The notes beneath the pieces are model-generated. The model worked only from the letters and a program-made list of their open reading frames with translations, did no database searches and was not told the origin of the DNA. Made by a program: the position numbers and the translations under genes. From a virus (Duplodnaviria; Caudoviricetes), in IMG/VR virus record IMGVR_UViG_3300048589_000933, positions 1 through 50,782 of that record: a DNA stretch of 50,782 nt; one strand, written 5' to 3'. This document shows, in pieces, positions 1,534-49,650 of this stretch. Positions within the stretch are counted from its first letter, which is position 1. Every line of letters starts with the position of its first letter.

Positions 1534-1630
1534 CGATCCGACTCCGTTCCCGCGCCCGCAGCAACGGTACCACCACCGCGACGGCGATCGCTGGGCAGGG
1601 GGCGTTCGCGCTGCGGACGCGGATAGTCAT
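1403..1630 (-). CDS. Possible small protein (75 aa) coupled to the RT stop and overlapping the integrase start
   Basis: ATG at 1630 overlaps the RT TGA (ATGA); no recognisable domain. Confidence 0.3.
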   Translation of the reverse strand: MTIRVRSANAPCPAIAVAVVVPLLRARERSRIDGDTNTRERGDLLPQLEGSKGRVGRRPAPRAESAGPVPRPVDR

Positions 1631-3423
1631 AGGGTGGCCTGGCACCGCAGCCGCACCACCCGCCCTTCCATCGCCGCCGGGAAGCGCCTCTTGGCGGTGG
1701 CTGCCGGGAGCCAGCGGAAGCGCCGCAGCAGCGTCTGCCGCAGCCTGTGGCTGTCGGCGTGGGTGAAGTGGCCCTGGTAGCTGGCCCACACAGCGCGGAC
1801 CGCGCGCAGGCCGTCTGGCGTGGCGAGAATGCGCCGGCCGCGGACGTGGGTGGTCTCCCACTTCGCCAAGGCTTCGCGTGCGTGGCTGACGATGCGGCGG
1901 CGGACGGTGGTGTGGGTGGGGCGGACGATGTACCCGAGGAAGTCGATGCCGGTGGCGAGCGGCGCCAGGCGCTGATCGGCTTTGAGCTCGAGGCGCAGCG
2001 ACTGCTGCAGGAACTGCTCGATCTGCACTCGCCAGCACTCGAGCTGGGCGCGATCGTGGTGGACGATGACGAAGTCGTCGACGTAGCGCAGGTAGCGCTT
2101 GGCCTTGAGCGTGTGCTTGACGAATTGGTCGAGCTGGTCGAGGTAGACGTTAGCGAAGAACTGGCTGCTGAGGTTGCCGATCGGGATCCCGCAGCCCGTC
2201 GGTGCGTTCTGCAGTTGCTTGTGCAGTGGCACGAGTGCGCGGCGCTCAGGTGTGGTGCGGTAGTTGACGCCGGTGCGGTCAATGGATGAACGCAGCAGCG
2301 CGTGCATGGTGCGCTGGGCCGCCAGGCTGAGACCTTCCCGGGTAGTGCGCGTCTTCAGCAGCGCGTATAGCGTGGGGCGATGGATGCGGTTGAAGAAGTT
2401 GGCCACGTCGAGCTGCAGGAACCAGCCGCCACCCTGGCCGCTGTGTACCTCTCGCACGAACTGCTGCAGGCGGCGTACGGCGGCGTGGCTGCCCTTGCCG
2501 CGGCGATTGGCAAAGCTGTCGTGGATGAATGCCGGCTCATAGATGGCCTCGATCTGCGGCACCAGCCAGTGGTGCACGACGCGGTCGCCGAAGTCTGGCG
2601 CGTGGATCTCTCGCGCCTTTGGCCGGGTCGCGATGAAGCACGTCGACGGTTGCGGCTGCCACGTGCCGGCGTTGAGCTGCTCCTGGAGTTCGATCAGGCG
2701 ATCAGCCCAACGGGCATCGAACGCGAGGCGGTTGGCACTGGGTTTCTTGCTGCGGCGCGCGGCCTTCCACGCGGCGTGCAAGTCGGTGAAGCTGACCTGG
2801 TGTTCATCACCCTGCAACTCACGGGCCGGACCGCGAACCGCGCGCACGCGGTTGTTGTTGTCGCGGTGGTTGTTGTTGGCGTTGCCGTTGTTGAAGCTCA
2901 CGATCCACGCGTAAGCGGCAGGCGACGCGTCCCCGCAGACTTGCGACCCGCTCGAGCAGCCGTGCTGGTAGCGCGAGTTCGTCATTTGTAGACCTCCCAT
3001 CGGGAGGCGGGTACTCAGTTGCTGGGCGCGCTGCACGACGGGCGCTTGCCCTTGCGCATCCTGGCCCTTGGGGTGCTGCCCGGTCAGCTGGCGGTACCAA
3101 CCGCCAGCCTGCTTACCCAGTTCGCGAGCGCTGCGGAACAGCGCTTCAAACTGCGCAAGGCTGGTGAATGCACGCAGTCGGCTGCAAAGCTGCAGCTGTA
3201 TTTTCAGCTCATCAATGGCCCACACCAGATTCCACGCATGCTCGCGTTGCCTGGGTCGATCGCGCCAAGCGCGATGGGTGAGCGTGGCGATCGCCAGGGC
3301 CTTCGCGCGCAGGTCGCTGCCTGCCGCGTACCGGTGGTAGCGCGGGAAGCGACGAACAGCCAGCTCGATATCGAGCATCAGTCGCTCGGCAAGCTGTGCG
3401 ATAGGTGGCAGCGCGAAGGTCAT
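1627..3423 (-). CDS. Avd-(TR)-reverse transcriptase in one ORF (598 aa); RT may also start at ATG 2985
   Basis: Residues ~1-113 are Avd-like four-helix bundle (RFPRYHRY..G.DLR ... ELGKQAGGW). The C-terminal part has the DGR RT motifs KAREIHAPDFGDRVVHH, GIPIGNLSSQFFAN, YLRYVDD and GIDFLGY. No stop lies between them; GGAGG precedes ATG 2985. Confidence 0.93.
   Translation of the reverse strand: MTFALPPIAQLAERLMLDIELAVRRFPRYHRYAAGSDLRAKALAIATLTHRAWRDRPRQREHAWNLVWAIDELKIQLQLCSRLRAFTSLAQFEALFRSARELGKQAGGWYRQLTGQHPKGQDAQGQAPVVQRAQQLSTRLPMGGLQMTNSRYQHGCSSGSQVCGDASPAAYAWIVSFNNGNANNNHRDNNNRVRAVRGPARELQGDEHQVSFTDLHAAWKAARRSKKPSANRLAFDARWADRLIELQEQLNAGTWQPQPSTCFIATRPKAREIHAPDFGDRVVHHWLVPQIEAIYEPAFIHDSFANRRGKGSHAAVRRLQQFVREVHSGQGGGWFLQLDVANFFNRIHRPTLYALLKTRTTREGLSLAAQRTMHALLRSSIDRTGVNYRTTPERRALVPLHKQLQNAPTGCGIPIGNLSSQFFANVYLDQLDQFVKHTLKAKRYLRYVDDFVIVHHDRAQLECWRVQIEQFLQQSLRLELKADQRLAPLATGIDFLGYIVRPTHTTVRRRIVSHAREALAKWETTHVRGRRILATPDGLRAVRAVWASYQGHFTHADSHRLRQTLLRRFRWLPAATAKRRFPAAMEGRVVRLRCQATL
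2821..2929 (-). repeat. DGR template repeat (TR), ~109 bp
   Basis: Nine AAC codons and 23 adenines on the coding strand; aligns without gaps to VR1 and VR2. Confidence 0.96.
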
Positions 3424-10106: not shown

Positions 10107-10886
10107 CTAACGAAAGAGGCCGCCTGATCCCGACCGGTCGATGACTTGTCCAAACAATGCAACCCGATCTCCAATGGCATCCGCCTCGACAAAGATGTCT
10201 GGGTAGGCCTGCTTGTCACTGTTCTCGCTGACGATACGATAGCCACCACCGTGCCGGAAGATGTACTTGACGACTACTTCGCCGTCCAACGCGAAGGCAT
10301 ACATGTTGCCGCTGCGGATCTGGGTTTCCTCCAGCGTGAAGTGGACCGCGATCTTGTCGCCATCGAAGAGCACGCGCTCCATGCTGGCGCCGTTGACGCG
10401 CATCACTCTGACATTCTCAGGCTTGGCACCGAAGCGCCGAAACCAATCGCGCTGGAAGGGCATGCGGTACTTGGTCTCCACGTACTCCGGCGACCATTGT
10501 CCCGGCCCCGCGCCAGCGACCATGTCTACGAACGGCACAAGTGATTCGGTCATTTGGTCGACGTCGCCGTCCCCATCGATGGCACGCACGGCATATGCGT
10601 GAAGCGGTTCTTGAATTTGCTTCGCACTGGCGGCCGCTTCGGTGCCATCGCGCGGGGCGAAGAATTTTGGCTCTCGGCCCGAATTGAGCCATGTCCCGCG
10701 GTAGCCAGTCTCCGACTCATAAGCGGCGAGCAGCTTCCCTCCAAGCTGTTGGGTCTTCCCGCCTTCGATCAAGTAGATCGCCTGGGCTGTGACTTTCAGT
10801 CGTCTGGCAAACGCCGCAACGTTTCGTTCGCCAGTTGATAGGCGCGCTTCGGTGGCTCGTTCTGCAAGCGTTGACATGTAAGCCAT
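10107..10886 (-). CDS. cI: CI-like repressor (HTH + S24 peptidase)
   Basis: HTH AAFARRLKVTAQAIYLIEGG, AG cleavage site, V.GASME catalytic Ser, VVKY Lys; divergent from cro. Confidence 0.9.
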   Translation of the reverse strand: MAYMSTLAERATEARLSTGERNVAAFARRLKVTAQAIYLIEGGKTQQLGGKLLAAYESETGYRGTWLNSGREPKFFAPRDGTEAAASAKQIQEPLHAYAVRAIDGDGDVDQMTESLVPFVDMVAGAGPGQWSPEYVETKYRMPFQRDWFRRFGAKPENVRVMRVNGASMERVLFDGDKIAVHFTLEETQIRSGNMYAFALDGEVVVKYIFRHGGGYRIVSENSDKQAYPDIFVEADAIGDRVALFGQVIDRSGSGGLFR

Positions 10887-19548: not shown

Positions 19549-19797
19549 ATGCCCACCGCCGCCGCCACGATGCTGCAATCCTACATGGACGCCGAAACGG
19601 CGCTCCTGAAAGGGCAGTCGATTCGATGGGGTGAGCGCATGCTCACGCGCGCCGATCTGGCCGTGGTGCAGGCAGGCCGCCGCGAGTGGGAGGGAAAGGT
19701 TGCTGCCGAGTCGGCAGCCGCGCAGGGCCGATCATCGCTGTTTGCAGTGGCGGACTTCAGCGGCCGCGGTGGTGACTGCGAGGGCTTCCGGTCGTGA
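19549..19797 (+). CDS. gpW-like head-tail joining protein
   Basis: ML..Y..AE..LL.GQSI....R.LTRADL pattern; sits before the portal. Confidence 0.8.
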   Translation: MPTAAATMLQSYMDAETALLKGQSIRWGERMLTRADLAVVQAGRREWEGKVAAESAAAQGRSSLFAVADFSGRGGDCEGFRS

Positions 19798-22700
19798 ACT
19801 GGGTGGCCCGCGCAATCGACCGCACCGTCGAGACCATCGCGCCCATGCACGGCTTGCGGCGCGCCCAGGCGCGCAACGCCCTCGCGTTGTCCAACAAAGC
19901 GTACGACGCTGCTGATCGCAACCGCTTCCGCGACTCCGTGCGCGACTTCGGCAGCGGCAACAACGCCGTGGTCGGCAGCGGCTTGTACGTGCGCAACATG
20001 GCGCGCCACCTGGACCGCAATCACGACATCGTCAGCGGCGGCCTGCACACCCTGGCGCAAAACATCATCGGCGCCACGGGCATCGGCGTCGAGCCGCAGC
20101 CGCGCAACCGCAACGGCGACGTGCTCGAGGATCTCGCCTTCCAGCTCAGCATGCTCTGGAGCGACTTCTGCAAGCGGCCCGAGGTTACCTGGCAGCACGA
20201 CAACGGCAGCATGGAGCGCCTGTTGTGCCGCACCTGGTTGCGCGATGGCGAAGGCCTCGCGCAGGAGTTGATTGGCCCTGTCCCGCTGCTCGATCACGGT
20301 ACGCGCGTGCCGTACAGCCTGGAGATGATCGAGCCGGACTTGCTGCCGTGGGATTTCACCGAGCCGGGCCGAGGCATCACGCAGGGGGTGCAGCGCAACG
20401 CCTGGGGGCGTCCCGTCGCCTACCACCTGTACAAGCAACACCCCGGCGAGATGCTGGCCCTGCTCGGTGAAACCAAGAGCGTGCCGGCCGAGCGGATGAT
20501 GCACATCAAGCTGGTCGACCGCATCGGCCAGGTGCGTGGTATCAGCCTGCTGGCGTCCGTGCTCACGCGCCTGGACGACCTGAAAGACTACGAAGAAAGC
20601 GAGCGCATCGCCGCGAAGATCGCCGCGTGCTTCGCCGCTTTCATCATCAAGGGCGACGCAACCCATCTGCCGGAAGGCGTGCCCGACAAGGATCGCACTG
20701 CGCGCCTTTCGCCGGGCATGGTGTTTGACACGCTGCGCCCTGGCGAGTCTGTCGGCACTGTCGACACCAATCGCCCCAACCCGAACCTTGAAGGCTGGCG
20801 CAATGGCCAGCTGCGTGCCGGTGCGTCGGGCTTCCGCATCAGCTTCAGTTCGTTCGCGAAGAACTACAACGGCACCTACAGCGCGCAACGGCAAGAGCTG
20901 GTCGAGCAGTACGGCGCCTATGGCGTGCTCAGCCAGGAGTTCATCGGCGCGATCGCGCGCCGTAAGTACGAGCGCTTTGCCGCTGTCGCCCTGGCCACAC
21001 CCGGCCTGCTGCGCATCCCGTCCGACTTCGCGGCCATGAGCATTGGCGACGCGATGTACGTCGCGCCGCAGATGCCGTGGATCAACCCGATGCACGAAGC
21101 CGAGGCCATGGCGCTGCTCGAAGAGCACACCTACATGTCCGGCCCCGAGATCATCCGCCGCCGCGGCGCAAACCCGCGCGACGTGCTCGATCAGCAATCG
21201 GCCTGGATCGAGCGCAAGCGCACCTGGGGCATTCCCAGTGCCACGACCGGGCCAGCCAAGCCACCGGAGAACCCCATGCAAAACACCCCCGGCGCGGCAG
21301 CGCCCGCCGCTGCGCGTCATCGCACCAGCCACCTTGCTGCCGAGGCGTCAACCTCGGGCGCAACTGGCCAGCGCTCGGTGCTGCGCGCCACCGCGCTCGC
21401 CTCTGGCGTCGAGCTGCTGATCTACGGGCCCATTGGCCTGAGCTTCTGGGATGACGGCATCACCGTCGAGTCCATCGCTGCGCAGCTGCGTGCCGCGCCG
21501 GCCGGTGATGTACGCGTGCGCATCAACAGCGACGGCGGCTTTGTCAGCGAGGGCATCGCCATCCACAACGTGCTGCGCGAGTGCGGTCGGCGCGTCGTTG
21601 TCGATATCGAAGGCGTGGCCGCCAGCATCAGCAGCCTGATCGCGATGGCGGGCGATGAGACCCGCATCTACTCCAACGCGTCGATGATGCTGCACACGCC
21701 AAAGGCCGGCCAGTTCGGCTCGCCGGAGGACATGGAAGACGCCGCGCAGTACCTGCGCGTGCAGCGCGAGGCCATGGCGCAGAGCTACGCCCGCAAGACC
21801 GGCCGGCCCGCCGCCGAATTTGTCGCTCTGATGGCTGACGGCCGCGACCACTGGTACACCGCCGGCGAATCCATCACCGAGAAGCTGGCCGACACCCTCA
21901 TCGACGGCACGCCCGCGCAGCTCGAAGCCGACGCTGCGGCCGCTGCCCTTGTCGGCTACATCAACGCGATCAGCAAGGCGCCGGATGCCCCGCGCCTCCA
22001 GCTGCGTTCGCACATCAACTCGGCCGTTTCCGTGGCCGCTTTCGCCTCGCTTTCCGAGGCATACCAACGCTCCGTCCTGGAGCACATAGAGGACCCAGCC
22101 ATGCGTAAGCTTTTGGTTGAAGCAATGGCGGCTGTCGCAGGCGCCCCGCCGAACACCACTCCCGCAGCAGCGCCCGCTGTTGCCACCGCTCCAGCACCTG
22201 CCGTTGCACCAACGCCTGCGCCCGCACCGGCAGCCGTCGCTGTGGCGCCCCAGCCAGCCGCCGTGGCTGCCGATGCGATGGCCCTGGCCACCGCCGCCAT
22301 CGCCCAGCGCAACACCACCATCCGCGGCATCTTTGCCAGCTTCCGCGAAATGACCGGCGTCGCGACGCTCGAGGCCGACGTGCTGGCCGATCCCAGCATC
22401 ACCATCGAGCAGGCGCAGGCGCGCTTGCTGGGCCGCGTTGGCCAGGGTTCGCCGGTGCAGGGCACCGCCGGCCACGTCGAGGCAGGCACTGACGAGCGTG
22501 ACCGTCTGCGCGCAGCCGCATCCAATCTGCTGCTGGCCCGCCACAACATCATCCAGGGCCCCGAGGCCGAAGCCGCGCGCCAGGGCAACCCATTCGGCAG
22601 CATGACGCTGACGGCGATGGCGGAATCGTTCCTGCGCCACCAGCACGTCGACACGCGAGAGATGAACCGCGAGCAGATCGCGGTTCGCGCCCTGGCGCAG

Positions 22701-23591
22701 CAGACCGCCAGCGACTTCGTGGTGGCCCTCGAGAACACGATGCACCGCTCGGTGCAGGCCGGCTACCGGCTCATCCCGTTCACCTGGTCGCGCTTCTGCT
22801 CCGTCGGCATGCTCACCGACTACCGCCCGCACAACCGCTACTCGCTGTCGAGCTTCAGCGATCTGAAGGACGTCAACGAATCCGGCGAGTACGAGGACGG
22901 CTCGCTGGGCGACGCCGAGAAGCAAACCATTCAGGGCAAGCGCAAGGGGCGCATCCTGCAGATCACTCCGGAAGTCGTCGTGAATGACGACCTCGGCTTG
23001 ATCCTGCGTGCAGCTGGCGCCCTCGGCCAGGCCGCGGGTCGCACGATCGAGAAAGACGTGCACGCCCTGTTCGCCTTGAACAGCGGCTTCGGCCCGACGA
23101 TGTCGGACGGCCTCGCGCTGTTCCACGCCAACCACGCGAACCTGGCTGCCACCGCCGGCGCGCCGACCATCGCGATCATCGATGCAATGCGTCAGCAGAT
23201 GGCCAGCCAGATGGACCCGGCCGGTAACGACTACCTGGACATCACCCCTGCGCTGTGGGTGGGCCCAATGGCTCTCGGCAGCACGGCGCGCGAACTGAAC
23301 GCGCAGGAATACAACGACGAAAGCAACAAGAACCAGCGCAAGCCCAATGTTGTGCGTGGTCTCTTCCGCGACGTTGTCGACTCACGCCGGATGGCCGCGC
23401 AGGTCTGGTACACGTTCGCCGATCCGAATGTCGAGCCGGTGTTCGAGGTTGCCTTCCTCGATGGCGTGCAGACGCCGACGCTCGATCAGCAGACCAACTT
23501 CCGCACCGACGGCGTCGCCTGGAAGGTCTCGCATCGCTACGGCGTTGGCGGGGTCGCCTGGCGTGGCGCCGTGCGTAACGCCGGCGGCTGA
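19794..23591 (+). CDS. Lambda-family portal + ClpP-type head protease + major capsid in one 1265-aa ORF (internal starts 21276, 22101)
   Basis: Portal (YDAA, RDGE, GQVRG, YSAQRQ, WINP..E), ClpP (RINSDGG, AASISS, MMLH) and capsid C-terminus (EVAFLDG.QTP, DGV.WKV...YGVG...WRG); no stop between them. Confidence 0.9.
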   Translation: MNWVARAIDRTVETIAPMHGLRRAQARNALALSNKAYDAADRNRFRDSVRDFGSGNNAVVGSGLYVRNMARHLDRNHDIVSGGLHTLAQNIIGATGIGVEPQPRNRNGDVLEDLAFQLSMLWSDFCKRPEVTWQHDNGSMERLLCRTWLRDGEGLAQELIGPVPLLDHGTRVPYSLEMIEPDLLPWDFTEPGRGITQGVQRNAWGRPVAYHLYKQHPGEMLALLGETKSVPAERMMHIKLVDRIGQVRGISLLASVLTRLDDLKDYEESERIAAKIAACFAAFIIKGDATHLPEGVPDKDRTARLSPGMVFDTLRPGESVGTVDTNRPNPNLEGWRNGQLRAGASGFRISFSSFAKNYNGTYSAQRQELVEQYGAYGVLSQEFIGAIARRKYERFAAVALATPGLLRIPSDFAAMSIGDAMYVAPQMPWINPMHEAEAMALLEEHTYMSGPEIIRRRGANPRDVLDQQSAWIERKRTWGIPSATTGPAKPPENPMQNTPGAAAPAAARHRTSHLAAEASTSGATGQRSVLRATALASGVELLIYGPIGLSFWDDGITVESIAAQLRAAPAGDVRVRINSDGGFVSEGIAIHNVLRECGRRVVVDIEGVAASISSLIAMAGDETRIYSNASMMLHTPKAGQFGSPEDMEDAAQYLRVQREAMAQSYARKTGRPAAEFVALMADGRDHWYTAGESITEKLADTLIDGTPAQLEADAAAAALVGYINAISKAPDAPRLQLRSHINSAVSVAAFASLSEAYQRSVLEHIEDPAMRKLLVEAMAAVAGAPPNTTPAAAPAVATAPAPAVAPTPAPAPAAVAVAPQPAAVAADAMALATAAIAQRNTTIRGIFASFREMTGVATLEADVLADPSITIEQAQARLLGRVGQGSPVQGTAGHVEAGTDERDRLRAAASNLLLARHNIIQGPEAEAARQGNPFGSMTLTAMAESFLRHQHVDTREMNREQIAVRALAQQTASDFVVALENTMHRSVQAGYRLIPFTWSRFCSVGMLTDYRPHNRYSLSSFSDLKDVNESGEYEDGSLGDAEKQTIQGKRKGRILQITPEVVVNDDLGLILRAAGALGQAAGRTIEKDVHALFALNSGFGPTMSDGLALFHANHANLAATAGAPTIAIIDAMRQQMASQMDPAGNDYLDITPALWVGPMALGSTARELNAQEYNDESNKNQRKPNVVRGLFRDVVDSRRMAAQVWYTFADPNVEPVFEVAFLDGVQTPTLDQQTNFRTDGVAWKVSHRYGVGGVAWRGAVRNAGG

Positions 23592-23688
23592 TCGCCGGCA
23601 CAGCGCCTCAGCTCACCTGACTGAGTCAAACCCCTAGCCACATCGCCCGGCCCTACATCGGCCGGGCACATTCAAGAGGAAACGTGTC

Positions 23689-24072
23689 ATGGCAAAGAAC
23701 TATGTGTGTCCCGGCGACACCATCCCGTGGGTCAACACCACCGGCGTAGCGGTCGCTTCCGGCCAGCTCGTGCGAGTCGGCCACATGCTGGGCGTGGCGC
23801 TGGTCGCCATTGCCATCGGCGCCACCGGCAGCGTCGCAATCGAGGGCGTGTTCCGCGGCGTGCCGAAGGTCTCCGGCGCAGTCTTCGTTCAGGGCGAGAA
23901 GCTCGTCTTCGACTCGAGCGCCGGCTCCGGCGTGGGCGCATTCGATGACGCCGCAGCCACGCCAGCCACTGGCGACATCACCGGCGGCGCCGTGGCCTGG
24001 GCGGCGGGCACCGATGGCCAGACCACCTGCACGGTGAAGCTCACCCCGGGCAACGCAACGCTCACCGCGTAA
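23689..24072 (+). CDS. DUF2190-family capsid-associated protein
   Basis: MAKNYV.PG, SG..V..G...GVA, GVF..PK, ends VKL; directly after the capsid gene. Confidence 0.85.
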   Translation: MAKNYVCPGDTIPWVNTTGVAVASGQLVRVGHMLGVALVAIAIGATGSVAIEGVFRGVPKVSGAVFVQGEKLVFDSSAGSGVGAFDDAAATPATGDITGGAVAWAAGTDGQTTCTVKLTPGNATLTA

Positions 24073-24104
24073 CCACTCAGGGCGCCGGGCAGCCGCCCGG
24101 CATT

Positions 24105-24138
24105 GCGGTGCCGACCACTCCCCGGCACCGCCTTTTTT
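24105..24138 (+). terminator. Intrinsic terminator after the head genes
   Basis: GCGGTGCCG-N9-CGGCACCGC followed by CTTTTTT. Confidence 0.7.
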
Positions 24139-24160
24139 CATCGTCATCCGCGAGGGCCGC

Positions 24161-24367
24161 ATGCGCAGGATTCCGCCAGTCACGTCAGGGCAAACAGAAA
24201 CCGGCGAAGGCCCGGTGCCGCACCGGCTGATGCGGGTTGCCGGGCACACGTTTCGCGCGCCCGTGGTGCTGCAGGACAGTCACTCGCGCGGCAGCCTGCC
24301 GCGGCCGGTGCGCGTTGACGATCGCCTGGTGTACGCGCTGCCCGGCGGCGGGCGGGTGGTGGGCTGA
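24161..24367 (+). CDS. Hypothetical protein
   Basis: GAGGG RBS; stop overlaps the next ATG. Confidence 0.5.
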   Translation: MRRIPPVTSGQTETGEGPVPHRLMRVAGHTFRAPVVLQDSHSRGSLPRPVRVDDRLVYALPGGGRVVG

Positions 24368-25005
24368 TGGACGCGCAGTCGGCTTACTTCATCGTCTCCA
24401 TCGTCATCACCGTGTTCGGCGCTGTGTACGCGTTTGCGCGTTGGGCGTGGCCGCGCATCAAAGCGGTGACGGAAAAGCTCCGGCCGTACTTTGCGGGCCT
24501 TGCCTCGCTCGACGTGATCTGCGCAGATCTCGCCGCCATCAAGCACGAGCTGCTGCCCAACGGCGGCGGCAGCTTTCGCGATGAGTTTCGTGAGCAGGCC
24601 CGTGAGAACCGGATGCAGGGCGCGATCTTGCGCGCCTCGCTGGACTTCTCCGACGCCGCGATGTTTCAGGCCGACGCCACCGGCGAGTTCCGCTGGGTGA
24701 GCGCTACGCTGCAGGGCTGGGTGGGGCGTTCCTTCTCCCATCTGCTGCGCCGCGGCTGGCTCACCAGCGTGGCCGACGAAGACCGCGAGCGCGTGCGCGC
24801 CGGCTGGGAAGCCGCGCTGCGCGATCAGCGCGAGTACCGCGGTCAGTACACGTTGATCAGCGACACCGGCGAGCGCATCCCCGTTGAGTGCGTCGCGCGC
24901 CCGGTGTGTGACCCGGCCACCGGCGTGCTGCATCGCTACCTGGGCCACATTCGCCGGCGCTCCTCGGCAATCACCAGCGCCTGGCTGCCGGATGACGGCG
25001 CATGA
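24367..25005 (+). CDS. Membrane-anchored PAS-domain protein at the holin position
   Basis: N-terminal TM helix, ELLPNGGGSFRD linker, then PAS pattern (MFQADATGEFRWVS...GWLTSVADEDRERV...W). Confidence 0.8.
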   Translation: MDAQSAYFIVSIVITVFGAVYAFARWAWPRIKAVTEKLRPYFAGLASLDVICADLAAIKHELLPNGGGSFRDEFREQARENRMQGAILRASLDFSDAAMFQADATGEFRWVSATLQGWVGRSFSHLLRRGWLTSVADEDRERVRAGWEAALRDQREYRGQYTLISDTGERIPVECVARPVCDPATGVLHRYLGHIRRRSSAITSAWLPDDGA

Positions 25006-25583
25006 CCACGCCTGCACCTGTCGAAACCACCCCGCCGGCCGGCGCCGGCCGCCTGGGTTTTGTTGGCGCCAGCGCCGCGGCGGTGATGCTGCTGTGGGCT
25101 GCGCTGATCGGCTCCGAGCAGCGCGAGTACGTGCCGTACCTCGATGTGTTCGGGGTGTTGACCGTGTGCGCCGGCATCACCGGCCCGGAAGTGATCGCCG
25201 GCCGCACCTACTCCGACACGGAGTGCGATGCGCTCGAGCACGGCTACATCACACGCATGCTCGCGCGCATGGGTGAGTGCGTGAAGCGCAGCGATCTTGC
25301 GCTGCACCAGGTCATCGCCTGGGGCCACTTCGCCTACAACGTGGGCAATGCCGGCTTCTGCAAATCCACCGCCGCAAGCTACTTGAACAGCAAGCGCGAC
25401 AAGGAAGCCTGCGATCAGATCATGCGTTGGACGTTCGGCACCTCGCGCCGCACTGGCAACCGAATCGACTGCGCTGTGCGTGCCAATCGCTGCTACGGCC
25501 TGTACGACCGGCGCCTGCGCGAGCGCGCCATGTGCAACGGAGACATGGACGCGTTCAAGCCCGGCTGGAGCGCAGCCGCATGA
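25002..25583 (+). CDS. GH24 lysozyme endolysin, probably SAR-type
   Basis: Ala/Gly-rich N-terminal hydrophobic segment; E-X8-D-X5-T triad; FAYNVG...FCKST; GL..RR..E...C. Confidence 0.92.
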   Translation: MTTPAPVETTPPAGAGRLGFVGASAAAVMLLWAALIGSEQREYVPYLDVFGVLTVCAGITGPEVIAGRTYSDTECDALEHGYITRMLARMGECVKRSDLALHQVIAWGHFAYNVGNAGFCKSTAASYLNSKRDKEACDQIMRWTFGTSRRTGNRIDCAVRANRCYGLYDRRLRERAMCNGDMDAFKPGWSAAA

Positions 25584-25795
25584 TCAGCCTGCTGCTCGCC
25601 GCAACCATGGTGGTGGTGATCGATCCACCAGCGCCGAAGTCCTGCGAACTTCCTGGCCTTCGCATCGTGCTGGCGGATGGCAACGTGATCTACGCCTTGT
25701 CAGCTGACTACATGCTGCCGCCTGCGCTTGGCATCGTGATCGTGCCGTTGCCCGACCAGGTGTTCTGCCACGGCTTCGAGCGGCCGGCGCCATGA
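25580..25795 (+). CDS. Small exported protein with C-terminal DQVFCHGFE motif
   Basis: ATGA-coupled on both sides; hydrophobic N-terminus. Confidence 0.65.
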   Translation: MISLLLAATMVVVIDPPAPKSCELPGLRIVLADGNVIYALSADYMLPPALGIVIVPLPDQVFCHGFERPAP

Positions 25796-26208
25796 CCGTC
25801 GTTCAGGCACTGCAGACCTATCTGGTCAAGATCCTGGCCGGCGTCATCGTGCTGCTACTGCTGGCGTGCGTTGGCCTTGGCATCGCGCTCTATGTCACCG
25901 ACCAGCGCGCGGATATTGCCGAGAAGGCCGTCACCGAGTCGGTGAAGAATCACAAGGCCTGCACCGACGCCAACACCGCATGGTCGGGCACCGTCGACTT
26001 CATCCAGGGCGCCCTGCAGAACTGTGTGGCCGATCGCGCCGAAGTCGCCAAGACCGGCCGTGCCGCCGTCGGCCGCGTGCGCAACCAGGTGGCCACGCTA
26101 GAGGCCGAGCTGGCCACCTGGCGCAGCCAGTCCACCGCGGCCGAGTTGCTGCCGCAGTGCCGCGGCGTGCTCGAGCTTGAGCTGTGCCCCGAGCTGGCGG
26201 ACTACTGA
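25792..26208 (+). CDS. i-spanin (Rz-like)
   Basis: N-terminal TM plus periplasmic coiled coil, in the lysis cassette. Confidence 0.7.
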   Translation: MTVVQALQTYLVKILAGVIVLLLLACVGLGIALYVTDQRADIAEKAVTESVKNHKACTDANTAWSGTVDFIQGALQNCVADRAEVAKTGRAAVGRVRNQVATLEAELATWRSQSTAAELLPQCRGVLELELCPELADY

Positions 26209-26209
26209 C

Positions 26210-26536
26210 ATGACCAAGATGACCCCCCGCCGCCGACCGCCCACCCGGTCAGGGAGAGCCCTGGCCGGTGTGGCCGTGTGCGTGCTGGTGCTGCCGCTCA
26301 CGGGGTGCTTCGGTCGCGGCGTACGCGACTGTCCCACCACGCCCGAGATCGTCGAGGTCCCGCGCCGCGTCTACGTGCCGGTGCCGGATGAACTGACGCG
26401 CCCGGCCGATATCGCCGAGCCGCGCAACCGTCGCGTGGGCGAGCTGCGCGACGTGGCCAAGCAGCGCAAGACCGCGCTCGAGGCCGTCAACGCGCGGCTG
26501 GCCGAGATCCGCGCATTGGCACCACCGGAGGAATGA
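26210..26536 (+). CDS. o-spanin lipoprotein (Rz1-like)
   Basis: Lipobox LTGC; Pro-rich VYVPVP.ELT.P. Confidence 0.75.
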   Translation: MTKMTPRRRPPTRSGRALAGVAVCVLVLPLTGCFGRGVRDCPTTPEIVEVPRRVYVPVPDELTRPADIAEPRNRRVGELRDVAKQRKTALEAVNARLAEIRALAPPEE

Positions 26537-26868
26537 CCGTGAACCCGATCAAGTCGCAGTTGCTGCTGTCCGAAGTTCGCGAGAACACTGAGCGCAAGTT
26601 CGGTGCCGCGAACCACGTCTATCCGCAGTGGGTGGAAACGCTCGAGGGCTTCAGGCCGGCGCAGTTCATTCGCAGCGAAGTGGACGCGGCGTTCGAGCGG
26701 GCCCGCAAGAACCCGGAAGACATGCCGCCGCGCTACATCGCGCCGGCGTCCGCCCCGGTTCTGCAGGTTGCCGCTTCGACGAATCGCGTGGCTGCCATCG
26801 CGGTGCTGTCGGCGCTGGTGGCCAGCATCGTGACGGCCGTGCTCATCCTCGAGCTGGTCGCACAGTAA
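26533..26868 (+). CDS. Hypothetical protein with C-terminal TM helix
   Basis: ATGA-coupled; hydrophobic C-terminus. Confidence 0.6.
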   Translation: MTVNPIKSQLLLSEVRENTERKFGAANHVYPQWVETLEGFRPAQFIRSEVDAAFERARKNPEDMPPRYIAPASAPVLQVAASTNRVAAIAVLSALVASIVTAVLILELVAQ

Positions 26869-27203
26869 TGCACAGCAGCTTCGCCACCGAGTTCGACGAC
26901 CTGGCGCATGAGGCGTTTGCCGACGCCGGCATGGGCGCCGGCACCGGTAGCTATCTCGCGCCGGATGCGGATCCGGCTGACGTTGTCACCGGCGTGCGGA
27001 TCTACATTGATCAGGAATCTCAGACCGCTGGCGAGTACGGCCCCGTGTTCGCGAAGCGCGTCATCATCACGCTGATCAACGCCGACGTGCCGAACCCGTC
27101 TGTCGGTGCCCTGGTAACGCTCGGGTCTGACCGCTGGCTGCTGCGTCGGCTCGAAGCGTCCGATAGCAACAGCACGTCGTGGGTTGTTGAGGTGGCGCCG
27201 TGA
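26868..27203 (+). CDS. Head-tail joining (gpFII-like) protein
   Basis: Size, beta-rich pattern and position. Confidence 0.6.
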   Translation: MHSSFATEFDDLAHEAFADAGMGAGTGSYLAPDADPADVVTGVRIYIDQESQTAGEYGPVFAKRVIITLINADVPNPSVGALVTLGSDRWLLRRLEASDSNSTSWVVEVAP

Positions 27204-28729
27204 GCCGCACAGCCATCACATGCGTGCGCGGTGACCGCTGCCGGTTCGGACTGCGGCTGTCTGCTCGCTTCCCTGATGGCATCCCGGCTGACTACGCCAC
27301 GGCGCGCTTCGAAGTGCGCCACATCCCGGATGACACCAGCACGGCGCTCATTGCCGTCGATCAGACATCAGGCATCACCATCGATCACGACGCAGCGCGC
27401 ATCGACGTGACCGTTGGCGCAAGCGTCACCGGTGCAATGCCCGTCATCACCCGCACACGTGAACCGCACGCACGGCTGCGGCTGTTCCATGCCACCGACC
27501 CGGATGCGTCCATCAGCTGGCTGCTGCCCATGGTGCTGCTGCCCAACGGCGCAGTCGCCGATGGGCAGTATCTGCGCCGCGTGGGCGATGAGGTGGTGGG
27601 TGGCACGCCCGCAGTTGGCGAGGGCGCCGCGGAGTGGGGCGGCATCGGCGGTGATTTGCCTGCTCAGACAGACCTGCAGGCCGCCCTGGACGCCAAGGAA
27701 GCGTCTGGTGCCGCCGCCGCGGCGGTTTCTGCGCACGCCGGCGCAGCTGGCGCTCACGAGATCAGTGGCGTCAACGGCTTGTCGAGCGCGCTGGCGTTGC
27801 TGGCGCCACTGGCATCGCCGGCGCTGACCGGCGCCCCGACGGCGCCGACGGCAGCGGGCGGCACGGCCAGCACCCAGCTGGCAACGACGGCTTTCGTGTC
27901 CGCGGCCATCGCTGCGCTGCTCAACAGCGCGCCAGGCGCACTCGACACGCTCGACGAGCTTGCCGCCGCCTTGGGCGACGACCCGGCTTTCGCGACGACG
28001 ATCACGAACGCGCTGGCGGGCAAGTTGGCCAAGGCCAGCAACCTGAGCGACCTGACAGACGCTGCGGCAGCGCTGAACCTGGGCGCGACAACCATCGGCG
28101 GACAGGTGTTCACTGCGGCCAATGCCGGCGCCATCCGGACGCTGCTGGAGCTTGGCGCGGCCGCGCTCCTGGCTGTCGGCACATCAAGCGGCACCGTGAT
28201 GGCCGGCGACGATGCGCACGCGCCCACATCTGACCAGAAAGCGGCGCTCGCCGGCACGAACGGAACGCCGGCAACCGGCAACCGCTACGTGACCGACAGC
28301 GACGCGCGCAACACGAACGCCCGCACGCCGACGAGTCACGGCAGCGGCCACGGCTATGCCGGCGGCGACCCAGCCAGCGGCCTGCGCAGCGACCAGATGC
28401 CGCGCGCCAACGTCGTCACCGAGTCCACCACCGCGCGCACGATAACGCACACCGACGACACCAACACCGACGCCGGGAAGGTCATTCGATGCACGAATGC
28501 GTCCGGCTGTGTCGTGACCTTCCCGGCCTCGCTGCCGGTCGGTGCCGCGGGGTCGCTCCTGCAGGCGGTCGGGGCGGGGCCCATCGAATGGGCGGTGTCC
28601 GGCTCAATGGTCGCCACGCCGGCCGGTGACGCGCGCGCGGCGCACACCGAGAGCGGCGGCGAAGGCGCAACGATCCATTGGCTTGTCGATGTCGCCAATA
28701 GCGTCATCATCGACGGGCAGACGGCATGA
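27200..28729 (+). CDS. Fibre protein (tail-fibre repeats, baseplate-upper-like N-terminus)
   Basis: APLASPALTGAPTAPT..., APGALDTLDELAAALGDDPAFATTITNALAGK, SNLSDL..A motifs. Confidence 0.8.
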   Translation: MSRTAITCVRGDRCRFGLRLSARFPDGIPADYATARFEVRHIPDDTSTALIAVDQTSGITIDHDAARIDVTVGASVTGAMPVITRTREPHARLRLFHATDPDASISWLLPMVLLPNGAVADGQYLRRVGDEVVGGTPAVGEGAAEWGGIGGDLPAQTDLQAALDAKEASGAAAAAVSAHAGAAGAHEISGVNGLSSALALLAPLASPALTGAPTAPTAAGGTASTQLATTAFVSAAIAALLNSAPGALDTLDELAAALGDDPAFATTITNALAGKLAKASNLSDLTDAAAALNLGATTIGGQVFTAANAGAIRTLLELGAAALLAVGTSSGTVMAGDDAHAPTSDQKAALAGTNGTPATGNRYVTDSDARNTNARTPTSHGSGHGYAGGDPASGLRSDQMPRANVVTESTTARTITHTDDTNTDAGKVIRCTNASGCVVTFPASLPVGAAGSLLQAVGAGPIEWAVSGSMVATPAGDARAAHTESGGEGATIHWLVDVANSVIIDGQTA

Positions 28730-46997: not shown

Positions 46998-47316
46998 GGG
47001 GGCGTCGCCGCAGTGGCCCATTCCCGGGCGCAAGGCGACGGCTCTCGCGTCGCGGCGCGAGCGCCGCCCCGGCGGCTCCGCTGGGTCAGTTGGTCGGCGA
47101 CGTGCTGGGCGTTCTCCACGTCGCCTGAAGGGGCAAACGTCAGTGGTGTGCTGCGAGGAAGTGGTGGCGGCACATGGCGGGCGCCTGCGGAGATGAATGG
47201 CCCTGTTCGGGCAACTCACCTGGGTGCGCTGGCCAGGCGACGAGCCACCCTTTGGCCGCTTATCCTTCAGTCGAGAACAAGCGGCCAACTGCCGACTTGA
47301 GGGTTTCGGAACACGC

Positions 47317-49650
47317 ATGAGTCCAAATACTGCCGCTCCCCTTGGAATGCCGTCCTTGCTGACCCGCTGTGGCCAGGTGTTTGGTGCGGAATGGACTGCC
47401 ACCGAGGCAGCCGAGATCCATCAGCGCATCGAGGTGATGGCAGAAGAAGTGGACAGCGCAGGCTTGGCTGAGCTGTCAGAGTCGCTGCTTGAGCTGTCGG
47501 TCTTTCTCTGCTCCCTGGTCGACATGGGCGCGGCGCCCAGTGCCGCCTCGCAAGCGCGAATTGCCGCGATGTGCGCCGCTATGCTTCCTCAGGAGGTCGC
47601 GGCCGCGGCGCCGGTGCAAGAGCGTGCTGCGCTCGCCGAGCGCGCTCCGCTGGTGCTGTTGCTGGTTCCGCCGGGTGTGTCTGCGGCGGCGCTGGTAACC
47701 GAGATCGGTCGCCGCAAGCTGCTGGCGAGCCAGGTCGATTCGCTGGAAGGGCTGGCAGCCGAAGTGTCAAAGCGACCGGTAAGTGTGGTCGCCATCGACA
47801 TCAGTTGGGTGGACCGTGCGGCCGAAGTCTCCGCAGCCATCGAGCGCGCGCATCCGCATGCGTTGACCCAGCCTGGCCTGCTGGCGGTCATCGAGGCCGG
47901 CAACCGGTCACGCCGCATGTTTGCGCTGCGCGCCGGCGTCGATCAAGTGGTCGAGGAGTCATCCGCCAGTACCTTGGCGGACGAGATCTCGGCCTTCGTC
48001 CACAAGCGACGTCACTCTGCCTTTCGCGTGTTGGTGGTGGAAGACGATCACGCCCAGGCCCTCTTTGCCCAGAGGGTGCTGGGTCACCGCGGCATCGAGA
48101 CGCGGGTGGCCGCCAGCGCTGAGGCGGCGCTGGCGATGGTCGAAGACTTCCGCCCCGACCTGTGTCTGCTCGACCTCAACCTGCCGGACCGCAACGGCAT
48201 CGAACTGGCGCAGATGTTGCGCGAGCGCCCCGGCTTCGAACTGGTCCAGATTGTTTTTCTGACCGGAGAGATGGACCCCGATGCCCGCGCACTGGCCGTA
48301 CGTCTGGGCGCCGATGACTGGATCGTCAAGCCGGTGCGACCGCGCGATTTGCTGACCGTGGTGGAAAGCCGCGCGGAGCGCGCGCGGCGTGCGGCGCCGC
48401 ACGACCCGGTGGCCGGGCTGGGCCGCGATGCTGCCCGCGGCGTGCATTCGCGGCGCCGAGTGGTGAGCGCCATCGCCAGCGCCATTGCCGAGCCACCTTC
48501 CGACGACCGCAGCGTGTTGATCGCGGTGTCGCCACAGCTGCCGCCGGAAGATCTGCCGGGCGTCAGCTGGGAGGCGCAGGCCGAACTGGGCGGCGAAATC
48601 GCGCGAGCACTGCGCGGCGACGGGCTGGTGCGCTCTGAGGTTTGCCAGGCCGAGACGCTGTGTTGCCTCTTCATTGCCGACCCCTCGGCGGCCGGTCAGG
48701 TTGCGCTGGCGGCGCTGGCCAACAGCCTCGACCGGCGGCAGTGGCTTGGGGCTGCCGAGAGCGGCGTGCGCCTCGCCTTTGCCGTGGCCGGCCTGCCGCT
48801 GGACCCGCAGCTCACGCCGCACGGCGCCATCGAGAGCGTGCTGTCGTTGCTGCGCAAGGCCCGCGAGCAGGCGCCGCGAGTGCGCTTTCAGGCCGGTGCG
48901 AGCGCCCAGGCTGCGCCGCCGGGCTGGCCGCAGCTGCGCAAGATGTTCAACGACGACGCCCTTGGTCGTTCGCATCGGCTCGCCTTCCACCCGCTGGTGC
49001 CGGTGACCGGCACGCGCAGTGGTCAATTCCTGCTCAGCGCGGAATTCGAGGTCGTGCTGGACGACGGCGGCAGCGTGGTTCCCGACCACCGCGCCTTTGC
49101 CCGCTCGGCTGGATTTCACCTCAAGCTCGACCAGTGGCTGCTGTCGCGCTGCCTGGATCGCCTGCGTCTGTCGCGCGGCGGCCTCAGCCTGCACGTCGAG
49201 GTGTGTCCGGAATCGCTTGAGGACCCGGCGCTGGCGGCCTGGCTGCAGGCCGAACTGCAGCGGCGCCGGATTCCGGCGCCCGATCTGATGCTCTGGGTGG
49301 CCGCGGATCGCATGCGTGGCGCCGGCAGCCGCGTCTCGCAGTACCTGCGGCCCTACGCGGCCATGGGCGTGCAGATCGGCATCGGCCCACTCGGCGATAC
49401 GCCGGCTGAGCTCGAACTGCTGAAGTTGGACGAGGTGCACATGATCAGCTGCAGGGCAGGGGCCACGGCAACGGAAATCTCGCCGGTGCTGCTGCAAGCC
49501 GCCGCAGAGCGCGGCAAGTCCGTGCTGGTGGACAGTGTGGACGACCCGAGCACGGCGGGCGCCGTGTTCCGCCTGCCCATCCACTACGTCACTGGCCTGG
49601 CCATTTCGCCACCGCTGACGCGACCGGAGTTCGAGTTCCCCAGCCAGTGA
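47317..49650 (+). CDS. Response regulator with REC domain(s) and degenerate GGDEF/EAL domains
   Basis: RVLVVEDD...PDLCLLDLNLPD.NG...GADDWIVKP; C-terminal EAL-like fold lacking the EAL motif. Start uncertain (47197 alternative). Confidence 0.82.
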   Translation: MSPNTAAPLGMPSLLTRCGQVFGAEWTATEAAEIHQRIEVMAEEVDSAGLAELSESLLELSVFLCSLVDMGAAPSAASQARIAAMCAAMLPQEVAAAAPVQERAALAERAPLVLLLVPPGVSAAALVTEIGRRKLLASQVDSLEGLAAEVSKRPVSVVAIDISWVDRAAEVSAAIERAHPHALTQPGLLAVIEAGNRSRRMFALRAGVDQVVEESSASTLADEISAFVHKRRHSAFRVLVVEDDHAQALFAQRVLGHRGIETRVAASAEAALAMVEDFRPDLCLLDLNLPDRNGIELAQMLRERPGFELVQIVFLTGEMDPDARALAVRLGADDWIVKPVRPRDLLTVVESRAERARRAAPHDPVAGLGRDAARGVHSRRRVVSAIASAIAEPPSDDRSVLIAVSPQLPPEDLPGVSWEAQAELGGEIARALRGDGLVRSEVCQAETLCCLFIADPSAAGQVALAALANSLDRRQWLGAAESGVRLAFAVAGLPLDPQLTPHGAIESVLSLLRKAREQAPRVRFQAGASAQAAPPGWPQLRKMFNDDALGRSHRLAFHPLVPVTGTRSGQFLLSAEFEVVLDDGGSVVPDHRAFARSAGFHLKLDQWLLSRCLDRLRLSRGGLSLHVEVCPESLEDPALAAWLQAELQRRRIPAPDLMLWVAADRMRGAGSRVSQYLRPYAAMGVQIGIGPLGDTPAELELLKLDEVHMISCRAGATATEISPVLLQAAAERGKSVLVDSVDDPSTAGAVFRLPIHYVTGLAISPPLTRPEFEFPSQ

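Follow-up and report, generated by a model that had tools for sequence, protein, structure and literature searches.

What does a PAS domain do on a one-pass membrane protein that occupies the holin position of a phage lysis cassette? The question is raised by a gene at 24367–25005 in a virus genome of the Caudoviricetes (IMG/VR record IMGVR_UViG_3300048589_000933), analyzed here at its full length of 50,782 bp (66.7% G+C; rated complete by CheckV) and called the window. To our knowledge, the setting of the moment of lysis has been worked out closely in just a few model systems, which respond either to the concentration of the holin itself or, in T4, to a periplasmic sign of superinfection. A cytoplasmic sensor domain on a membrane module of the lysis cassette would let the internal state of the host feed into burst timing, an idea that can be tested. 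An earlier note on the sequence had proposed a signal-responsive holin or antiholin. The reading we favor, with a probability of roughly 0.55, is that the one-pass PAS protein is a trigger or regulator of lysis timing, with release of a signal-arrest-release (SAR) lysozyme as the controlled step and the PAS domain as the input. Of this reading, the observations cover the PAS fold, membership in a family, a predicted topology, and a gene neighborhood that is conserved. No published description of a PAS-bearing phage lysis protein was found in the literature, as judged by titles and abstract openings.

Architecture and predicted topology of the PAS protein

The open reading frame (ORF) of the PAS gene is open over its 212 codons and has a strong coding signature, with G+C of 0.67, 0.52, and 0.85 at the three codon positions; the antisense ORF at 24280–25017 (245 residues) did not pass the codon-position filter. 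The gene and its parts are as follows.

24367..25005, + strand: PAS gene, encoding a 212-residue one-pass membrane protein with an N-terminal helix, a PNGGxSxRD motif, and a PAS domain
24382..24447, + strand: membrane helix, residues ~6–27, by Kyte-Doolittle hydropathy; the sole hydrophobic helix of the protein
24547..24582, + strand: signature motif E-L-L-P-N-G-G-G-S-F-R-D, residues 61–72; modeled as a loop joining two helices
24643..24957, + strand: PAS domain, residues ~93–197, by Pfam, AlphaFold2 model, and Foldseek

The single membrane helix and the PAS fold had both been claimed in the earlier note, and both hold up. Pfam matched PAS_4 over residues 95–196 (E 8.2e-9; 36.1 bits against a cutoff of 23.1), PAS_3 (E 3e-8; 34.3 bits against a cutoff of 25.6), and PAS (E 9.9e-5). 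In an AlphaFold2 model based on 21 relatives, the mean predicted local distance difference test score is 89, and ~97 over residues 98–197. Its predicted layout is a long helix (3–62), a loop P64–S69 (63–68), a second helix (69–92), and the PAS fold (98–197), where the five-stranded sheet with flanking helices that defines the fold is present. In a Foldseek comparison of the model with the PDB, all of the best matches are PAS or LOV domains (probability 1.0, E ~4e-7, target TM-score 0.65–0.82), among them 3lyx, NifL (2gj3), HIF-2a/ARNT PAS-B, and PpSB1-LOV; a PDB search with the sequence returned generic PAS sensors alone. As the note had also stated, no output or other domain lies C-terminal of the PAS domain in the 212-residue protein. 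No ligand or cofactor motif was found, and the residues conserved family-wide (W131, R140, W147, and R155) match no nameable cofactor.

The orientation of the protein can be predicted from its charges. No lysine or arginine precedes the helix, where the N terminus is short and acidic, and five follow within 15 residues. Across the family, the helix is followed by more lysine and arginine residues than precede it in 18 of the 21 rows of one alignment and 15 of the 17 rows of another; the conforming rows of both have none or few before the helix and one to six in the 15 residues after it, and in the exceptional rows the script chose a later hydrophobic stretch or the start lay far upstream. Because of this distribution, the positive-inside rule predicts an N-out/C-in orientation throughout the family, with motif and PAS domain in the cytoplasm.

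A phage family with and without the PAS domain

An exhaustive phmmer search with the PAS protein returned 1924 proteins at E ≤ 1e-3 and 297 at E ≤ 1e-10. Among the best 150 matches, 141 are 150–280 residues long, and most align from the helix through the end of the PAS domain. The strict motif pattern is satisfied by 109 of the 141, and 11 of 13 inspected misses are close variants such as T-N-G-G-K-S-L-K-D. In 135 relatives, N65 is conserved at 97%, G67 at 95%, S69 at 91%, and D72 at 98%, and the commonest residue at a position has, on average, a frequency of 0.58 over residues 59–75, 0.43 over the PAS domain, and 0.29 over the helix. Because residues 59–75 are thus the most conserved stretch of the protein, above the PAS domain itself, we regard ELLPNGGGSFRD as the family signature, and the description of this segment in the earlier note as a short coiled linker has to be abandoned. 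Conservation in the 21 closest relatives extends to the C-terminal half of the helix and a juxtamembrane RW..P. Four family members of 363–396 residues (P0007, P0016, P0053, and P0056) show two matching stretches and are tandem-PAS forms behind the same helix and motif.

The helix and motif also occur without the PAS domain. Scans of IMG/VR and Genome Taxonomy Database (GTDB) genomes gave 13, 3, and 54 loci, which fall into 42 clusters at 85% identity: 25 contain a PAS domain, and the other 17 are short forms, 53–151 residues long, that end soon after the motif. When the N-terminal parts of 121 PAS forms were compared in a local hhalign run with those of 16 short forms, including Av-1 HolA, mu1/6 gp52, and P1312_040, the probability was 99.45% (E 4.8e-22, 64 columns). 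P64, N65, G67, S69, and D72 are invariant in all 17 rows of an alignment that includes the same three proteins. The phrog_9869 profile matches the relatives L016 (E 5e-21), L003 (E 2.8e-7), and L006 (E 2.6e-6); phrog_15431, annotated as “holin,” matches more weakly than phrog_9869, in the motif region of relatives.

The short forms lead to cultured phages. A tblastn search with one of them found eight records from five cultured actinophages, and helix and motif are present in HolA, gp52, and P1312_040 alike. In Actinomyces phage Av-1, HolA (AV1_gp16) is followed by HolB, a two-pass holin, and then by LysA, and the GenBank note on HolA records one transmembrane region and says that the protein seems to boost the holin activity of HolB. 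In Streptomyces phage mu1/6, gp52 lies directly downstream of endolysin gp50 and holin gp51, and in Thermobifida phage P1312, gene 040 lies directly ahead of an amidase. Among the 17 short-form clusters, at least three are in lysis cassettes: L016 (with a GH25 endolysin), L050 (with an adjacent Amidase_2), and L063 (with Amidase_2 three genes on). In the window protein, the motif x-P-N-G-G-x-S-x-[RK]-D follows the helix at the family's distance of some 15–55 residues, and by its helix, basic residues, motif, and profile, the protein is assigned on sequence grounds to the HolA/phrog_9869 family of one-pass modules.

With or without PAS, the family of helix plus motif is apparently phage-specific. 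An ESM Atlas structure search with the N-terminal part returned clusters of 183–229-residue PAS proteins labeled 100% viral. A tblastn search of the PAS protein and of its L006 relative against 50,697 cultured-phage records gave no match, and in a word-indexed protein search, the PAS protein itself was the only match.

The lysis cassette and the control of lysozyme release

The PAS gene comes second in a chain of overlapping ORFs, the other members of which are listed here.

24161..24367, + strand: orf68, 68 residues, hypothetical; one-base overlap between its TGA stop and the PAS-gene ATG; G+C at third codon positions 0.81
25002..25583, + strand: SAR-type GH24 lysozyme (endolysin), 193 residues; PF00959 E 6.7e-19, phrog_7 endolysin E 5.8e-32
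25580..25795, + strand: orf71, 71 residues; ATGA-coupled on both sides, short N-terminal hydrophobic stretch
25792..26208, + strand: i-spanin (Rz-like), 138 residues; strong N-terminal membrane helix, ATGA overlap with orf71
26210..26536, + strand: o-spanin, a LysC/Rz1-like lipoprotein; lipobox LTGC, ORF open from 26177
26533..26868, + strand: orf111, 111 residues, tail-anchored; C-terminal helix ~86–108, ATGA-coupled to the o-spanin

PAS gene and lysozyme gene overlap by an ATGA at 25002–25005, so that the coupling to the endolysin described in the earlier note stands, as does its placement of spanins downstream. The absence of a conventional multi-pass holin, also remarked upon there, was borne out by a six-frame scan of the whole genome for ORFs of at least 40 residues that combine coding-type G+C with a hydrophobic segment: it found no small multi-pass membrane ORF, and the only small membrane proteins in the 50.8-kb genome are those of the lysis cassette. 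The lysozyme begins with a 17-residue Pro-rich tail, followed by a Gly/Ala-rich, weakly hydrophobic segment at 18–38, and its E39, D48, and T54 are invariant across four homologues. At the two ends of the chain, orf68 has no membrane helix and no family match in Pfam or PHROG, and orf111 carries a coding signature and an N-terminal part of ~85 residues that is predicted to be cytoplasmic. A promoter and terminator scan of 23400–27600 gave nothing above chance.

Elsewhere, PAS forms stand in lysis cassettes in 7 of the 25 clusters, beside four endolysin families, in a neighborhood sample that is small and partly non-independent.

L002: PAS gene, then PF00959 lysozyme
L004: PAS gene, then PF00959 lysozyme, with the same ATGA overlap as in the window
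L015: PAS gene, then a lysozyme homologue two bases downstream
L005 and L006: two-pass small ORF, PAS gene, Peptidase_M15_4; a homing endonuclease is inserted in L005
L024: PAS gene, three-pass ORF, GTA_holin_3TM gene, Peptidase_M15_3
L026: PAS gene, overlapping GH108 endolysin, two-pass ORF
L090, in a Chiayiivirga metagenome-assembled genome: PAS gene directly before a SAR-like lysozyme, a further pair

Two arrangements can be told apart. Direct pairing with a SAR-type GH24 lysozyme occurs in five diverged lineages including the window, with identities of 27–42% for the PAS proteins and 33–43% for the lysozymes. In the SAR-lysozyme loci of the window and G003, there is no multi-pass membrane ORF in the same operon; in G003 (98% complete), a lipoprotein is the sole other membrane protein of that operon. 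At the loci with soluble endolysins (L005, L006, L024, and L026), a separate small multi-pass holin candidate is adjacent to the PAS gene. Because these relatives have such a candidate, we favor an accessory, trigger, or regulatory role for the PAS protein over a hole-forming one. Of the signal-responsive holin or antiholin proposed earlier, the link to lysis survives, since Av-1 HolA and other lysis-cassette proteins are homologues of the N-terminal module and the gene recurs beside four endolysin families; the hole-forming part is disfavored by the adjacent holin candidates.

What we infer for the window is an effect on lysis, a partner for the PAS protein, and sensing by its PAS domain. The PAS protein would be a membrane-tethered, cytoplasm-facing lysis-timing protein in which the PAS domain replaces the short charged tail usual in the family. 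A SAR lysozyme would need membrane depolarization or active release rather than a large hole, and because the PAS gene is coupled to such a lysozyme, its product is read as the trigger or regulator of the moment at which the lysozyme leaves the membrane. Two modes of action can be considered. First, the protein could act on the membrane anchor or cytoplasmic tail of the lysozyme, as the releasin of phage Mu does. Second, it could oligomerize through its partly conserved helix, as LysF1b of mycobacteriophages does. In either case, the PAS domain would make release depend on a cytoplasmic cue. A complex prediction for the PAS protein with lysozyme residues 1–60 scored 0.00; its controls were not run, and the result has no bearing either way.

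Two features of the paired loci deserve mention. The SAR lysozymes that follow a PAS gene have an unusually long Pro-rich cytoplasmic tail of ~10–23 residues, and M1, T9, and P12 are invariant in four of these lysozymes; in G003, the tail holds five basic residues. The dependence of Mu gp22 on its releasin comes from basic residues in the tail. The closest viral relative, L078 (G001), has a 47-residue one-pass ORF at 10675–10818 (− strand), with coding G+C and overlapping between PAS gene and lysozyme, possibly a mini-holin that is absent from the window. The tailed lysozymes lie as follows.

Window, 25002..25052, + strand: tail
L077, 3069..3611, − strand: lysozyme
L015, 4549..5076: lysozyme
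L078, 10113..10673, − strand: lysozyme
L090, 891..1433, − strand: lysozyme

A bolder version of the favored reading makes the PAS protein the sole lysis timer of a holin-less phage: a cytoplasmic cue (redox, energy state, or a metabolite) would switch the helix–PNGG module and so free the SAR lysozyme, a sensor-gated releasin or holin. We hold this version only tentatively. The same module is spread over well over a hundred phage lineages, and if this version is true, many phages would couple burst time to the internal state of the host. The window would be a good test case, with a compact overlapping cassette, a SAR-type endolysin, no other holin to cloud the readout, and natural PAS-less relatives as controls.

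It is rather unlikely that the PAS protein is itself the holin or pinholin, with a helix that oligomerizes and depolarizes the membrane on time to free the SAR lysozyme and a PAS domain that modulates this oligomerization. The gene does sit in the holin position, with its ATGA overlap with the endolysin, in a genome without a multi-pass holin; the half-helix and RW..P kept among the closest relatives and the weak phrog_15431 “holin” match would suit such a role, and a one-pass N-out/C-in protein, LysF1b, is reported to support lysis alone, triggered by energy poisons (PMC13056207). However, in relatives with soluble endolysins, the PAS gene is invariably neighbored by a separate multi-pass holin candidate, Av-1 HolA is annotated as an enhancer rather than a holin, and the helix is far less conserved than the cytoplasmic motif.

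That the PAS protein does not serve lysis at all, but is a membrane sensor with another role (superinfection exclusion or host signaling) that lies beside lysis genes by chance in some phages, seems improbable, and it is here that the evidence weighing against our reading belongs. Many members of the family have replication or nucleotide-metabolism genes as neighbors or are remote from an endolysin: the PAS gene stands between ribonucleotide reductase and Mom genes in L003 and L027 and after DnaE in L010, and the endolysin is distant in 3 of the 25 clusters (16.5 kb in L042, 31 kb in L013, and ~16 kb in L033). Among the 25 of 59 families listed in a Pfam tally of 141 neighboring ORFs, replication-type families dominate and Phage_lysozyme occurs in two. 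In 15 of the 25 clusters, a search with six Pfam families located no endolysin, most of these records being fragments that are 13–50% complete; for two of the families, GH108 and GH19, looked for in 17 records, the controls were silent too, and these two results are uninformative. The N terminus of the window protein matches phrog_9869 only weakly (E 0.011). Lastly, the PAS gene is absent from all five syntenic prophage cassettes of the Lysobacterales described below, and because of this absence, we regard it as a dispensable, optional mosaic part of this cassette type. Against a role apart from lysis, five diverged lineages show the gene translationally coupled to the endolysin, four unrelated endolysin families and holin-like genes are found in its company, and its N-terminal module is homologous to the lysis-cassette proteins of the cultured actinophages. 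Moreover, a proven lysis regulator may lie outside the cassette: LysA2b of mycobacteriophage D29, reported to regulate lysis (10.64898/2026.08.27.747656), sits among tail genes.

Least probable is that the holin function falls to orf111, which the earlier note had named as a possible holin and which stays a holin candidate, and that the PAS protein serves it as antiholin or activator by way of the cytoplasmic domain of each protein. The product of orf111 is coding, ATGA-coupled, and one-pass; a large N-terminal part of it is predicted to lie in the cytoplasm and next to none of it outside. In gross topology it is thus orf111, rather than the PAS protein, that resembles phiKZ gp142, a proven class IIIB holin tuned by a cytoplasmic regulator (PMC12894885). 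Against this, orf111 has no family match in Pfam or PHROG, an ESM Atlas search gave no usable look-alikes, and no homologue was found in the PAS–lysozyme loci G001, G003, and L015, where the PAS–lysozyme pair is conserved.

The window is a temperate phage of Lysobacter-type bacteria. Its large terminase is 58–71% identical to prophage genes in 9 of 10 related genomes and 46% identical in the tenth, and 9 of the 10 belong to the Lysobacterales (Chiayiivirga, Arenimonas, Marilutibacter, Luteimonas, and Pseudoxanthomonas). A temperate life-style is read from the 509-residue large serine recombinase at the left end (4–1533, − strand; Resolvase N-terminal domain E 1.9e-21). In five syntenic Lysobacterales prophages, the lysis cassette occupies the slot after a head-decoration gene; three carry two- or three-pass holin candidates, and in the other two the place of the PAS gene is taken by a one-pass coiled-coil protein. 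The latter (L110 351–941 and L111 299–730) is a protein of ~100 residues with a C-terminal coiled coil, conserved between both loci; as a relative of the PNGG family it was rejected, with no significant similarity and a probability of at most 18.5%.

Other genes of the window can be noted in passing. Adjoining the recombinase is a 598-residue reverse transcriptase (1627–3423, − strand; RVT_1 E 1e-16), a retroelement that may be of diversity-generating, retron, or abortive-infection type. An uninterrupted ORF of 1265 residues (19794–23591, + strand) joins a lambda-type portal (53–375), a ClpP-type prohead protease (567–704), and a Phage_capsid_4 major capsid protein (966–1262), an unusual triple fusion that could be real or a read-through. 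Near the right end, an 817-residue protein (47197–49650, + strand) with receiver and EAL (cyclic di-GMP phosphodiesterase) domains could be a phage-borne signaling gene or host flank.

Comparison with known lysis systems

The class III design of T4 holin T consists of one helix, N-in/C-out, with a periplasmic regulatory domain. T and phiKZ gp142 resemble the PAS protein as one-pass proteins with a large soluble regulatory domain, T being of about the same size, and the earlier note had drawn the analogy to T. The analogy is not supported: T (class IIIA) and gp142 are both N-in/C-out (PMC12894885), the reverse of the N-out/C-in orientation predicted for the PAS family, and the PAS protein has no Pfam or PHROG match to either. 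Phage 21 is similar in that a small membrane protein precedes a SAR lysozyme, and there the pinholin S21-68 sets the release time of the SAR endolysin R21 (general background; see also PMC13056207). Unlike the PAS protein, S21-68 has two membrane helices and no soluble domain.

A closer likeness, in design only, is to the releasin gp25 of phage Mu. As described in PMC9239132, gp25 is a membrane-tethered cytoplasmic protein, N-out/C-in with few residues outside, that works with a SAR endolysin in a holin-less phage and whose family is paired with diverse endolysins. The window shares the N-out/C-in tethered cytoplasmic design, the SAR endolysin partner, and the lack of a holin, whereas gp25 has 99 residues, is encoded downstream of its endolysin, and has no PAS domain. 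Homology to DUF2730 (PF10805) was considered and rejected, with no HMMER match at E ≤ 1 or E ≤ 10 and hhalign probabilities of 2.3% and 0.5%.

The mycobacteriophage proteins LysF1b (Girr gp35 and NBJ gp33) and LysA2b (D29 gp30), of the Pfam family DUF2746, are likewise one-pass and N-out/C-in, and are the lysis proteins of this design that have been studied best. Their deletion is reported to delay lysis and cut burst size, and the current model is that the one-pass protein activates a two-pass partner (PMC13056207; 10.64898/2026.08.27.747656). They share with the window protein an N-terminal helix followed by basic residues, the predicted orientation, and a helical portion in the cytoplasm, and differ in having no PAS domain and in having the two-pass partner, which the window lacks. 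HMMER matched DUF2746 (PF10874) neither in the window nor in five records of phages with short forms, and hhalign gave the short forms a probability of 27% against DUF2746. The motif helix of the window family aligned to ‘..VSNSHDENLRDEITR..’ of the D29 family at 88% (E 3e-6, 23 columns), and a distant homology between the PNGG family and LysF1b/LysA2b is possible, if unproven.

The nearest relatives remain HolA, mu1/6 gp52, and P1312_040, which, like the window protein, have a single helix, basic residues after it, an x-P-N-x-G-x-S-x-x-D motif, and a place in the lysis cassette. Unlike it, they have 91–147 residues, a short charged tail, no PAS domain, and Gram-positive actinobacterial hosts, and HolA and gp52 each adjoin a two-pass holin, which the window is without. 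Three little-known groups of one-pass N-out/C-in proteins, the HolA-like, the LysF1b-like, and the releasin, are linked by design, and the first two possibly also by distant homology.

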